Translations under genes and position numbers: made by a program | Shown: piece by piece, positions 1-5,392 of the stretch | How positions within the stretch are numbered: position 1 is the first letter of the stretch | How the letters are laid out: every line of letters begins with the position of its first letter | The notes under the pieces: model-generated | The model's input: the letters and a program-made list of their open reading frames with translations, nothing else | Database searches by the model: none | Told to the model about the DNA's origin: nothing | DNA from: a virus | Taxonomy: Duplodnaviria > Heunggongvirae > Uroviricota > Caudoviricetes | IMG/VR virus record: IMGVR_UViG_2877958089_000001 | Length of the DNA stretch: 11,559 nucleotides | Reading direction: 5' to 3' (one strand)

Positions 1-1164
1 TTACGCCTTCTTTATATCCTCCATAATTCCACAGTGGGACATATTTGGGACATTATCACCAAAAATGTCGTCTATTTTCCTTGCATGCTCTGTCAAATGA
101 TTAGGCGCAAGGTGAGCATACCTACGAACCATTTCTATGGACTCCCATCCGCCCATTTCCTGAAGCACAGATAATGGGACGCCTGACTGGATCAGCCAGC
201 TTGCCCAGGTGTGTCTGAGGTCATGGAAACGGAAATCTTCAATTCCTGCACGACGACAAGCTGATAGCCATGATGTCTTGCTGTCGATGCGCATCTTCCT
301 GACCGCAGGCGTTGATGTTCCATCTGCTCGCTTAGCCGCCTTGGTATGTACAAACACCCATTTGTGATGCTTGCCTATTTGATCACGCAACACTTTACAG
401 GCGGTATCGTTCAGCGCCACACCAATGGCGCGGTTTGATTTGCTCTCTTCTGGATTCACCCAGGCAACTCGTCGCTGCATGTCGATTTGTTGCCATTCCA
501 GATTTATGATGTTCGACTTTCTCAGACCAGTTGCCAGCGCAAACTTGACGACAGATTTCAGTGGTTCGGGGCACTCATCAATAAGGCGTTTTGCTTCCTC
601 CTTTTCCAGCCATCTGACTCGCTTGTTTCTGACCGCTGGTATCTTGATGACAGGCGCTTTTTCCAGCCACTTCCAGTCGCGTTCTGCAGCACGGAGAATG
701 GCCTTTATCATGGCAAGATGCTTTGCCTTTGTCTGAGTTGATACTGGCTTTGGTTCATAAACAGGCGGTTCTTTACCTTTCCTGATGGCGGCCTGAACTT
801 TCTGTTTCCATATTTCTTTCGTCTTTCTGTTATGCATTCTGCTTACAGCAGAGTAAATCTTTGCCTCCGAGATATCTTTAAGCCTTATACCCTCAAAATG
901 TTCAAGCCAGAACTCAATCCGGCTTTTATCTGAATCGAGAGATTTTTTATCAGCTTTTTCCTCAAGCCATCTTAGGCAGGCCTCTTCAAAAGTGACATCA
1001 GGTAAATCCCCTAGCTTTTCTACTCGCCAGAGTTCTGCTTTTCGCTTGTCGTGCAACTCCTGAGCTTGCCGCTTGTCCTTTGTGCCAAGAGATTCCTTAA
1101 TTCGTTTCCCGCCCGGGAGCGAATACGAGGCATACCATATTTCATTTCTGCGGAAGAGTGACAT
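1..1164 (-). CDS. intD: Phage integrase, tyrosine recombinase family (DLP12 IntD-like), 387 aa
   Basis: Full-length minus-strand ORF. C-terminal catalytic region with the tyrosine-recombinase signatures ([10 protein letters not shown] box and MVRRYAHL with the catalytic Tyr). ATG at 1164 is preceded on the coding strand by a GAGGAAAG Shine-Dalgarno. Sequence recognised from memory as the DLP12-type integrase. Confidence 0.93.
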
Positions 1165-1815: not shown

Positions 1816-1915
1816 NNNNNNNNNNNNNNNNNNNNNNNNNNNNNNNNNNNNNNNNNNNNNNNNNNNNNNNNNNNNNNNNNNNNNNNNNNNNNNNNNNNNN
1901 NNNNNNNNNNNNNNN
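1816..1915. other. Run of 100 N (assembly gap or masked segment of unknown true length)
   Basis: Directly visible in the sequence. Confidence 0.99.
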
Positions 1916-2109
1916 GGGTGCCTCCCGGTGCCTGGCGAAGGTTGCACACCAGGCGGGTGGGTATCCACAGAAGGTCGACTGTCAGCCTCAACCTTAACCC
2001 GCGTGCGCTGAGCCGCATTCACCACAACGCTAAGGATTCTCTCTGGTTGAAAATACTTAGCTGTTATGTGCCTGCTTTTAGCCACATCAGGCGAGGTGGA
2101 CCTGGTTAT

Positions 2110-2155
2110 TCCCCAACAACAAGGATTCGGTTAATCTGGATATCCCCAACAACAA
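2110..2155 (+). repeat. Two exact 13-bp direct repeats TCCCCAACAACAA (2110-2122 and 2143-2155), 33 bp centre to centre
   Basis: Read directly from the sequence; sits 15-60 bp upstream of the GTG start of the coiled-coil/zinc-ribbon ORF. Confidence 0.8.
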
Positions 2156-2169
2156 TAAGAGTATTCAAT

Positions 2170-2685
2170 GTGATCGCTGAATTAACGGCAGCAATGACGG
2201 CTATTCGTGAAACAGCCCAGATTGCAAAACTAATGAACGAGGCAAAAACTCAAGCTGAAGTAAATGCGGCTATTGGTGAGCTGAACTCAAAGCTTGCGTC
2301 TATTCAGCGCGAATGCGTGTCTCTCGTTGAACTGGTGGGCTCTTATCAAGAAATAAATGCTTCTCTCAAAGCTAAAATTGCAGAATTCGAAAACTTTGAG
2401 GCTCAGACGGAAGGCTATATCCTTAACCAACTTGAGTCGGGTACTTTTGTATACTCGAAGGAGGTAATCGTGAACGGTGGCAGCATAACCATGCATCTTT
2501 GCCCAAAATGTTTTGGACAAAAGATAGTATCGATACTTCAACCATTCCCGGTTAGCGAAGATGAGCTTTTTCATAAAAGCAGGTGCCTCCACTGTGAAAA
2601 TAAGTTTCTGATGAATAAAAATCCGGATTACGTATCGCCTCCATCCATTGAGGAGTTGTCCAGAAAACTTAACGGCAATCTGTAG
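2170..2685 (+). CDS. Hypothetical protein, N-terminal coiled coil plus C-terminal CxxC...CxxC zinc ribbon (about 171 aa from GTG 2170; alternative ATG at 2194)
   Basis: Long open frame with AGAG purine tract upstream of GTG 2170. Heptad-like helical N-terminus (AELTAAMTAIRETAQIAKLMNEAKTQAEVNAAIGELNSKLASIQ...), then CPKC, about 24 residues, CLHC. GC content is visibly lower than the flanking phage genes. The frame is also open upstream into the N-run, so the true start is uncertain. Confidence 0.55.
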   Translation: MIAELTAAMTAIRETAQIAKLMNEAKTQAEVNAAIGELNSKLASIQRECVSLVELVGSYQEINASLKAKIAEFENFEAQTEGYILNQLESGTFVYSKEVIVNGGSITMHLCPKCFGQKIVSILQPFPVSEDELFHKSRCLHCENKFLMNKNPDYVSPPSIEELSRKLNGNL

Positions 2686-2810
2686 ATTACTACTGTTGTG
2701 GATACCGTGGCATTTGAAGAGAAGTATGGCTCCCAGCTGGAGCTGATATTTCGTTTTATCGATCGCGCACTGGCGATTGGTGTGCTGGCCTGATTTTGTG
2801 GAGAAAGTTA

Positions 2811-3194
2811 ATGCGTGATATTCAGATGGTTCTTGAACGTTGGGGAGCGTGGGCGGCTAATAATCATGAAGATGTGACCTGGTCGTCCATTGCCGCCGGT
2901 TTTAAGGGATTAATTCCTTCAAAAGTAAAATCTCGCCCGCAATGTTGTGACGATGACGCGATGATCATTTGCGGGTGCATGGCCCGTCTGAAAAAGAACA
3001 ACAGCGATTTGCACGATTTATTAGTAGATTATTATGTAGTCGGTATGACATTCATGTCACTGGCAGGTAAGCATTGCTGCTCTGATGGTTATATCGGGAA
3101 AAGGTTACAGAAGGCTGAGGGCATAATTGAAGGGATGTTAATGGCATTAGATATCCGGTTAGAGATGGATATCGTTGTTAATAACTCTAATTAA
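2811..3194 (+). CDS. quuD: Late-gene antiterminator Q (short Q of the phage 82 / DLP12 QuuD type), 127 aa
   Basis: ATG 2811 preceded by GGAGAAAG. Cys-rich segments ([24 protein letters not shown]) typical of zinc-binding Q proteins. Position immediately upstream of terminator hairpins and the lysis cassette. Recognised from memory as the DLP12 Q-like protein. Confidence 0.8.
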
Positions 3195-3383: not shown

Positions 3384-4481
3384 TTAGAACTGGTAAACCA
3401 GACCTACAGCAACGATGTCATCAGTGCTTACACCGAGTGCTTTAGTGAAGTCATTTTTGTCAAGCAGGTTGATTTTGTAATCAACGAAAGTAGACATATT
3501 TTTGTTGAAGTAATAGGTTGCACCTACATCAACATATTTGACTAAGTCCTGATCGCCCCATACTCCAAGATCCTTACCTTTAGATTGCAGGTAAGCAACG
3601 GACGGACGCAGACCGAAATCGAACTGATATTGTGCAACAGCTTCGAAGTTTTGAGCTTTATTAGCAACGAAGTGATCAGCAAATACAGTCATATTCTGGG
3701 TTTCAGAATAGGTAGTGGCCAGGTAAATGTTGTTAGCGTCATATTTCAGACCTGCGGCCCAAACTTCTGCATTTTTACCGGAAGCAAATACTTCAGGAAG
3801 AACTTTCCCTGCATTAACTTGAGTGTCGGTACGATCAGATTTCGCATAAGTTGCACCGATACCGAATCCTTCGTATTCATAGGTAGCAGAGAAACCGAAG
3901 CCATCACCGTTACCTTCGGTGTAGTTATCGAAATCGCTACGATCGTTTTTGCCTTGGTACTGAGCAGCAAAGTTCAGACCATCAACCAGACCAAAGAAGT
4001 CGTTGTTACGATAGGTTGCAACACCAGTGGTGCGACCAGTCATGAACACATCTGTTTGGGTCCAGGTATCGCCACCGAATTCTGGCAGAACGTCAGTCCA
4101 CGCACCGATGTCGTATGCTACACCGTAGTTACGGCCGTAATCGATTGAGCCGTAGTCACCGAATTTCAGGCCTGCAAATGCAAGACGGGTTTTGTCTTTG
4201 GAGGAACCTTGAGATTCAGCGCGGTTGCCTTTGAATTCATATTCCCACTGACCGAAACCAGTCAGCTGATCGTTGATTTGGGTTTCGCCTTTGAAGCCCA
4301 GACGAACATAAGTAGTATCACCATCATCTGCATCGTTAGAGGAAAAGTAGTGCTTGGCATTAACTTTCCCGTACAGATCCAGCTTGTTACTGTCTTTATT
4401 ATAAATTTCAGCTGCCTGAGCAGACATCGCCATCAGTACTGATGCAGCTACAGCAGAAATTGCCACTGTTAATTTTTTCAT
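3384..4481 (-). CDS. nmpC: Outer-membrane general porin, OmpC/OmpF family (prophage-encoded NmpC / Lc-like), intact 365 aa
   Basis: Signal peptide [23 protein letters not shown] followed by AEIYNKD; porin-like Gly/Tyr/Asp-rich beta-strand pattern; C-terminal ...GLVYQF with terminal Phe. Recognised from memory as the DLP12 / PA-2 phage porin. Confidence 0.93.
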
Positions 4482-4959
4482 CGTGAGCCCTTTTTTTTGA
4501 ACTATTATTAAAAAATGATGTCACTGCGCGATAAATATTCATCTAATCAATGTGATTATTTCAAGATGTAAGTTTTAGTTTCTCATTTAATTTGTGAAGT
4601 AGATCTCTATTTTTATCTGAACTTTTTCTATCGAAACCTATTTATGGCTCTTATTTGAACAAAAATAAATCTATTAGCTAATTTATATTAATGGCTGTTA
4701 TTTATGGTGGTTCTATAATTCGTCTGTTTAATTTAAACCGGCTAAAAATAACACTGGAAATTATTTATTGGTTATTTGTTGAGGTTTTCTTATGTATTTG
4801 TGGTGATGTTTTGAACACTCGGTAGCATTCTCATAAATATCATTCAGTGGTTTACGTACGTAAAAAATTGGTTATGCTGTTAAGAGTGGTTACTTCGTCA
4901 CACAGCTTAAACCCGCCGTCGAGCTGGTTTTTCCATTTTTTGAGTCTCGATATTAGCTG

Positions 4960-5292: not shown

Positions 5293-5392
5293 NNNNNNNN
5301 NNNNNNNNNNNNNNNNNNNNNNNNNNNNNNNNNNNNNNNNNNNNNNNNNNNNNNNNNNNNNNNNNNNNNNNNNNNNNNNNNNNNNNNNNNNN
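5293..5392. other. Run of 100 N; must stand for at least about 0.6 kb (most of the endolysin plus the 5' part of Rz)
   Basis: Holin and Rz C-terminus flank the gap; an endolysin (about 165 aa) and about 64 codons of Rz cannot fit in 100 nt. Confidence 0.95.

Follow-up and report, generated by a model that had tools for sequence, protein, structure and literature searches.

The 11,559-nucleotide (nt) stretch of Caudoviricetes DNA analysed here (IMG/VR record IMGVR_UViG_2877958089_000001, hereafter the window) is what remains of an Escherichia coli prophage at the DLP12 (argU) site. Upstream of its quuD gene, it carries an open reading frame (ORF) at 2170-2685, whose product belongs, by sequence and predicted fold, to the Rip1 (ring interacting pore 1) family. 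The explanation that we consider probable is that of a prophage-borne Rip1-family protein, a small single-protein sensor and effector, which originated in the slot used by sieB in lambda and P22 and was moved to its present position by a deletion. Judged by analogy with the characterised members, it most likely functions in abortive-infection defence, with oligomeric phage packaging proteins as the trigger.

The assignment relies on sequence and structure searches that converge on the same protein. Among PDB sequences, a 40-member profile of the family retrieved only Rip1 (9oox, E=1.3e-35; next match E=0.002), the alignment being nearly full length (profile positions 4-149 on chain residues 14-159), and the single sequence also finds the 9oox Rip1 with phmmer (E=2.7e-7). 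The 9oox entry describes HK446 Rip1 bound to the T6 small terminase. When the AlphaFold model was compared with the PDB by Foldseek, two matches only were significant, both of them Rip1 chains of 9oox (E=4.6e-7 and 8e-7, probability 1.00). Profile and Foldseek searches of this kind had been proposed in an earlier note made from the letters of the window, and they gave Rip1 9oox as the only significant match, with no nin-region protein. Pairwise identity measured by BLASTP amounts to 27% over 148 residues with HK446 gp37, and 29% over 153 residues with DMS3 gp25.

The AlphaFold2 model, obtained with 30 homologues, has a mean predicted local distance difference test score of 90.1. It comprises helices at residues 2-24 and 28-79, forming an N-terminal amphipathic hairpin (residues 2-79), followed by a six-strand beta domain that carries a four-Cys zinc ribbon. 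Between the two Cys pairs, CPKC (111-114) and CLHC (139-142), lie 24 residues, and the four Cys (C111, C114, C139, C142) are invariant in two alignments and form the sole invariant columns across 40 divergent members. The helical N-terminal region and the CPKC-x24-CLHC motif, both read earlier from the translation, are thus confirmed. The hydrophobic moment at residues 7-24 is 0.44, compared with 0.42 in HK446 Rip1, and no transmembrane segment was detected in the protein (maximum Kyte-Doolittle 19-residue window 0.85).

With regard to annotation, the earlier description of an unannotated accessory gene holds, since Pfam, NCBIfam and PADLOC 2023 yielded sub-threshold coiled-coil noise only. 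PHROGs assigns the protein to phrog_1244 (E=9e-60), of 'unknown function', and RefSeq lists the identical coding sequence as a 'hypothetical protein' (WP_000559922.1). The family contains 123 clusters by word-indexed search and 2,723 clusters at 50% identity by profile search (E<=1e-3); among the matches listed, nearly all members are about 145-180 residues long, with some shorter fragments and a few proteins of up to 211 residues. The gene was found in 650 of 5,426 complete E. coli genomes (about 12%), including O157:H7, where it falls into two allele groups (identity of at least 99% and of about 94%), hypothetical in every annotation. A family of this size and such a distribution mean that ORF 2170-2685 is not a chance ORF. 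Its GTG start is backed by the MIAEL N-terminus, which is conserved across the 30 homologues. The gene stands alone in prophages, with no conserved partner and with neighbours that vary between loci. Two minus-strand ORFs (2287-2592 and 2423-2545) were treated as spurious because they lie inside this conserved plus-strand gene, and were not searched separately.

According to a 2026 review (PMC13434031), Rip1, described by Patel, McCarthy, Taylor et al. (Nature 651:1060, 2026), is a prophage-encoded single-protein defence that is not toxic alone; its characterised members shield lysogens from superinfection, and homologues are widespread in proteobacterial prophages. The same review locates the escape mutations in the portal for phages of Pseudomonas, and in the small terminase for E. 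coli phages. It further describes, by cryo-electron microscopy, twelve Rip1 monomers that ring an 11-mer small terminase, the C-terminal half touching the ring and the N-terminal part being made of amphipathic helices, and an assembly that acts as a pore, permeabilises liposomes and cells, and leads to premature lysis. A conference report (PMC12908700) and an independent paper (PMC13601566) are consistent with the Rip1 account of the review. From these relatives, we infer for the protein of the window an anti-phage activity, its trigger and the formation of a pore. The resident prophage would make the Rip1-family protein, which would be harmless alone. Once a superinfecting phage in late development makes a ring-shaped small terminase or portal oligomer, the zinc-ribbon C-terminal domain would dock around this packaging ring. 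Docking would template a Rip1 ring whose N-terminal amphipathic helices would form a pore in the inner membrane, and cell death would precede maturation of the invader.

The resemblance to HK446 Rip1 (gp37, YP_007111990.1; 9oox) and to the DMS3/JBD-type Rip1 covers size (164-175 residues), domain order and predicted fold, and all of these proteins are prophage-borne and encoded against the surrounding lytic operon. The HK446 gene lies between cIII/ral and N, against pL, that is, in the same sieB slot and behind the same upstream leader as ORF 2170-2685. In comparison with characterised Rip1, the protein of the window has a longer C-terminal tail (residues 151-171) its gene lies in a deletion remnant beside Q, and its spacer between the CxxC pairs is of another length (24 residues, against 19-28 in the family). 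Relative to HK446, the second hairpin of the leader is not the same, and the ORF is bracketed by an inverted repeat. As for the Pseudomonas proteins, the review assigns Rip1 to the interval separating the small terminase gene from the large one (PMC13434031); by tblastn, DMS3/D3112-type phages were found to carry a reverse-oriented homologue, flanked by an annotated DNA-binding protein (DMS3-24) and by the large terminase. HkaP of HK620 (NP_112049.1), annotated as a 'putative superinfection exclusion protein', belongs to the same family (28% identity, tblastn), with which it aligns, and shares slot and leader; as far as we found, its annotation derives from position only. Slot, orientation and upstream promoter/leader are also those of SieB of lambda and P22 (PF14163; PsieB, sas antisense RNA). 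SieB is expressed in the lysogen and aborts superinfecting phages, and the same role is proposed here for ORF 2170-2685 by analogy. However, SieB is an unrelated, integral membrane protein, unlike the product of ORF 2170-2685, and PF14163 gave no match to the latter at E<=10.

The ORF came to lie beside Q by a 5.9-kb microhomology-mediated deletion, and not by an insertion. The reference is the intact prophage of E. coli RM10466 (our locus L006), which was compared with the window base by base. Relative to it, 5,936 bp are missing: the left flank matches up to and including 2704, the right flank from 2700 onwards, and the two share GGATA (2700-2704) as a 5-bp microhomology. In RM10466, the gene has as neighbours the early-left operon (yfdP etc.) on one side and a LexA/S24-type cI repressor on the other, both on the minus strand; beyond the repressor are found cro, ymfL, replication genes, PerC, RusA, KilA-N, a full DUF968 gene and quuD. 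The distance from ORF to Q is thus about 6 kb in intact relatives, and ORF 2170-2685 adjoins quuD because the deletion removed the genes normally lying between them. In the intact relatives the gene is antisense to pL, and the homologues of E. coli, Citrobacter and Klebsiella are located between early-left genes and the S24 repressor. The idea that the segment had been inserted into the nin/Q-proximal slot must therefore be abandoned, the comparison with relatives proposed for detecting such an insertion having revealed a deletion in the window instead. The earlier statement that the protein is not one of the lambdoid nin region was correct: the native position lies left of the repressor, and searches gave no family match to RusA, NinG/DUF968, NinH or Roi.

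The deletion took the repressor, cro, the replication and nin-type genes and pL, together with OL-type operators, which are CTAA-N6-TTAG palindromes recurring at OR. It ends 19 nt past the stop codon of the ORF, and the lost segment contained the intrinsic terminator of the gene (L006 1071-1094) as well as half of a 26-nt inverted repeat bracketing the ORF. In the window, nothing is missing from the gene, the leader or the Shine-Dalgarno sequence, which do not differ from those of intact prophages. The same junction is present in 12 of the 5,426 genomes. It also accounts for the 35 in-frame sense codons that follow the TAG stop and end in ...AIGVLA. The window matches DUF968 from the junction onwards, so that the 35 codons comprise the final 31 of DUF968, preceded by a few that stem from the junction; in the identical locus, RefSeq annotates 2701-2793 as a DUF968 pseudogene. 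Among the readings that had been offered for them, that of a remnant of a displaced gene is confirmed, while an amber-truncated longer protein and a micro-ORF starting at GTG 2698 are not needed. A scan of the interval between the ORF and quuD found no strong terminator, only weak terminator-like hairpins. Because the deletion removed the terminator of the ORF, a transcript from the PsieB-type promoter described below, if this promoter fires, could read into quuD, 125 nt downstream.

The approximately 100 nt upstream of ORF 2170-2685 are far better conserved than the protein. A 30-nt core is nearly identical upstream of lambda sieB, P22 sieB, HK446 rip1 and HK620 hkaP (leaders compared: window 2070-2169; lambda, L139 1398-1482; P22, L261 2655-2758). 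The P22 record annotates an experimentally mapped sieB promoter and RNA start within the leader region, and alignment with it predicts, in the window, a transcription start near 2143-2144 and a 5' untranslated region of about 27 nt beginning with the second CCCCAACAACAA repeat. The loop of the first leader hairpin contains the first copy of the direct repeat and the -35 region expected from homology to P22 PsieB. Promoter position, and expression of the gene in the remnant, are points that we infer by the same analogy. The direct repeats had already been noticed and are real, but a coding frame through them is not supported, as they belong to the conserved sieB-type promoter and leader; the frame is indeed open upstream into the N-run (ORF 1687-2685), which is trivial since this run is the 100-N gap at 1816-1915. 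A P1 c4-like antisense system was considered for the two direct repeats and rejected, no complementary upstream element being seen. Rfam gave no match on the plus strand of the leader in the window or in HK446. Within the core, the columns of the possible pairings GCCTG/CAGGC and CCAC/GTGG are invariant, and hence uninformative on pairing.

The 26-nt inverted repeat runs from a point shortly ahead of the Shine-Dalgarno sequence to one shortly beyond the stop codon (2133-2158 and 2687-2712 in the window, the right arm being cut at 2704; 481-506 and 1035-1060 in L006), and contains the palindrome GGATATCC. It is kept with small changes in loci of E. coli, Salmonella, Citrobacter and Klebsiella, and is absent from HK446 and HK620. 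Pairing of the 5' and 3' ends of the mRNA, a protein-binding site and a cassette boundary are the possibilities that we see for it.

The leader is shared by many other genes. A scan of IMG/VR viral contigs with a 24-nt core found at least 120 loci (L140-L259), and among the matches listed the ORF after the core is SieB-like at 24 loci, Rip1-like at 11 and of another kind at 74. All-against-all BLAST of 109 ORFs following the core separated them into at least 27 clusters of unrelated small gene families. Family scans name few of these cargo clusters, namely, SieB, YmfI, ECs1072, ECs_2282 CxxC, BssS-like, several zinc ribbons and the PADLOC candidate PDC-M14A; in a PHROGs scan of ten representative 'other' ORFs, eight had a match, each to a distinct PHROG of unknown function, and no match was obtained for the remaining two. 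Among the matches listed, the longest open frame on each side lies on the strand opposite to the cargo in 63 of 83 loci with the leader. Furthermore, two viral contigs have both flanks 96-99% identical to RM10466 and a different cargo between L006 447 and 1102, which defines a cassette whose left edge in the window is at about 2100. In a Salmonella prophage (L008/L009 5001-5516), a homologue of 75% identity, preceded by the same leader, lies against pR, with cro on one side and the cII/replication genes on the other; its place in this pR-side slot indicates that the cassette moves between slots.

The hairpin following the core exists in at least 12 distinct yet complementary stem variants across loci. 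Two forms of the leader can be distinguished, a short one (ORF at +61 to +72) and a long one (+85 to +106), and covariation was tested with 43 short-form leaders, aligned by MAFFT and related to that of the window. Four of the six pairs of the short-form hairpin had changed on both sides, with 35 cells showing a both-side change versus 10.7 in shuffles (0 of 500 as high); slid controls were much lower. In the short form, the core (GCCTGNCTTTTNNCCACNTCAGGC...GGTGG) reads as a sigma-70 promoter (TTNACC, 16 nt, TGgTATNCT). In P22, transcription has been mapped to start within the loop of the last hairpin, which therefore cannot form in the mRNA itself; a structured antisense RNA, of which P22 sas (105 nt) is an example, is a better fit for the hairpin. 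Antisense RNA produced by lytic transcription through the cassette would then silence the cargo upon induction of the resident phage. We tentatively propose, at slightly less than even chances, that the element of about 100 nt, made of the core, one or two covarying hairpins with a C-rich loop and a PsieB-type promoter, is a portable platform for expression and antisense control. As part of this proposal, the element may mark a cargo-exchange hot spot in enterobacterial lambdoid prophages. Our literature search found no paper on such a leader platform in the sieB slot, although the Rip1 paper or the older lambdoid literature may cover it.

Several points weigh against a functional Rip1-type defence gene in the window. 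The protein shares only 27-29% identity with the two Rip1 proteins that have been studied experimentally, and trigger specificity, even activity, may therefore differ; its anti-phage role is proposed from homology, and the Rip1 mechanism itself is taken second-hand, from the review (PMC13434031) and the title of PDB 9oox. A sigma-70 consensus scan upstream of ORF 2170-2685 gave no promoter, and the -10 hexamer assigned by homology, TAATCT, is weak. Finally, the remnant gene is deprived of its terminator, of half of the flanking inverted repeat and of antisense pL transcription. One may thus imagine a Rip1 homologue by descent that is inert in the deletion derivative, unexpressed or useless, and persists only since the deletion is recent. 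The loss of the terminator, of part of the inverted repeat and of the whole immunity region, the rarity of the junction, which is consistent with a young event, and the failure to detect a consensus promoter all speak for it. Nevertheless, the ORF, leader and Shine-Dalgarno sequence are identical to the copies of intact prophages, the deletion stops short of the coding sequence by 19 nt beyond the stop codon, and a PsieB-type promoter would lie, by homology to P22, within the retained 2100-2169. For these reasons, we regard an inert gene as unlikely.

A protein that serves the cycle of its own prophage, in lysis timing or in packaging control via the resident small terminase, or that acts in counter-defence without excluding phages, appears more improbable still. 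The packaging component that it would bind, by homology, is also made by the resident phage, and the earlier note had considered anti-defence as well as defence. Of these two options, homology to a characterised Rip1 favours defence: characterised family members protect lysogens, with escape mutations in the portal or small terminase of the invader, as the review has it (PMC13434031), and the gene runs against lytic transcripts in the 63 of 83 listed leader loci mentioned above, which is typical of morons expressed in the lysogen and not of lytic-cycle genes. The combination of a coiled coil and a zinc ribbon might also suggest a regulator that binds nucleic acid or RNA polymerase, like DksA/TraR or CT398/FlgZ, with no effector role in defence. 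We find this hardly credible, and dropped it as a candidate for want of a family match and of a good structural match: no DksA/TraR or zf-RING_7 Pfam match appeared even at E<=10, the CT398 match has a root-mean-square deviation of 6.0 A and is one among hundreds of coiled-coil matches, and both Foldseek and the sequence profile favour Rip1 by many orders of magnitude.

As a Rip1-family gene, ORF 2170-2685 is a new member of a family described in 2026, and the assignment provides the 'hypothetical protein' WP_000559922.1 and its alleles with a testable function, namely, abortive infection triggered by packaging rings. It points to a putative defence determinant missed by current annotation, of relevance for predicting host range in phage therapy. 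The locus also illustrates that a position-based reading may be led astray by prophage decay, as one microhomology deletion brought a moron of the immunity region beside Q, and retained the candidate defence gene while repressor and replication genes went. The shared sieB-type leader platform may be the new part of this work, and suggests a systematic route to more cargo genes. If the platform proposal is true, the leader would be a 'guilt-by-leader' handle for new exclusion or defence genes, and sas-like antisense RNA from lytic pL transcription would be a general means of silencing abortive-infection cargo, Rip1 included, during induction.

Table. Features of the window, with positions in its own numbering
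Feature	Position	Strand	Remarks
Integrase gene	1-1164	-	
N-run	1816-1915		Exactly 100 N; looks like a scaffold gap or masking
STnc100-like small RNA, 5' part	1916-2058	-	Rfam RF02076, partial match in the window; divergent from ORF 2170-2685
Conserved 30-nt core	2070-2099	+	GCCTG-CTTTTAGCCACATCAGGCGAGGTGG; common to upstream regions of lambda/P22 sieB and HK446 rip1; left border of the exchangeable cassette
Leader hairpin 1	2098-2128		Arms GGACCT (2098-2103) and AGGATTC (2122-2128, one bulge); C-rich loop
Direct repeats, two copies	2110-2122, 2143-2155	+	TCCCCAACAACAA; second copy at the predicted mRNA 5' end
Putative -10 hexamer, PsieB-type promoter	2132-2137	+	TAATCT; placed by alignment to the sieB promoter and RNA start annotated in P22
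Shine-Dalgarno sequence	2156-2161	+	TAAGAG; directly after the second TCCCCAACAACAA copy
Rip1-family gene (by homology to HK446 Rip1, PDB 9oox)	2170-2685	+	171 residues; GTG start, TAG stop
Inverted repeat, truncated right arm	2694-2704	+	TGTTGTGGATA; includes GGATA 2700-2704
DUF968-domain gene, 3' remnant	2701-2793	+	Last 31 codons including stop; base-by-base match to the intact L006 gene
quuD (Q antiterminator)	2811-3194	+	125 nt downstream of the Rip1-family gene
nmpC-type porin gene	3384-4481	-	Intact, 365 residues; between Q and lysis genes
N-run	5293-5392		Exactly 100 N; looks like a scaffold gap or masking

With regard to the remainder of the window, the first N-run replaces about 2.3 kb in the otherwise identical complete genome AMSCJX02, where yfdR, yfdQ, yfdP and part of a phage gene are found, the three yfd genes being early-left genes. 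After this gap come ORF 2170-2685, quuD, the porin gene, the lysis genes and the terminase. The GC content is 0.42-0.43 over 2101-2700 versus 0.52-0.58 in the terminase region and about 0.47-0.52 in the integrase, in agreement with the lower value noticed before; that of the Q and lysis region resembles the value of the ORF.

The remainder of the STnc100-like RNA is hidden by the 100-N gap, and RefSeq calls the stretch a frameshifted hypothetical gene. The complete copy in the RM10466 prophage (L006 183-406) scores 40.3 bits with RF02076 (E=1e-6), below the gathering score of 47. The STnc100-like element also flanks other cargo genes in different contigs. As for the porin gene, we take the nmpC copy of K-12 DLP12 to be disrupted by IS5. 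A very AT-rich stretch (GC 0.25 at 4500-4800) adjoins the porin gene of the window.
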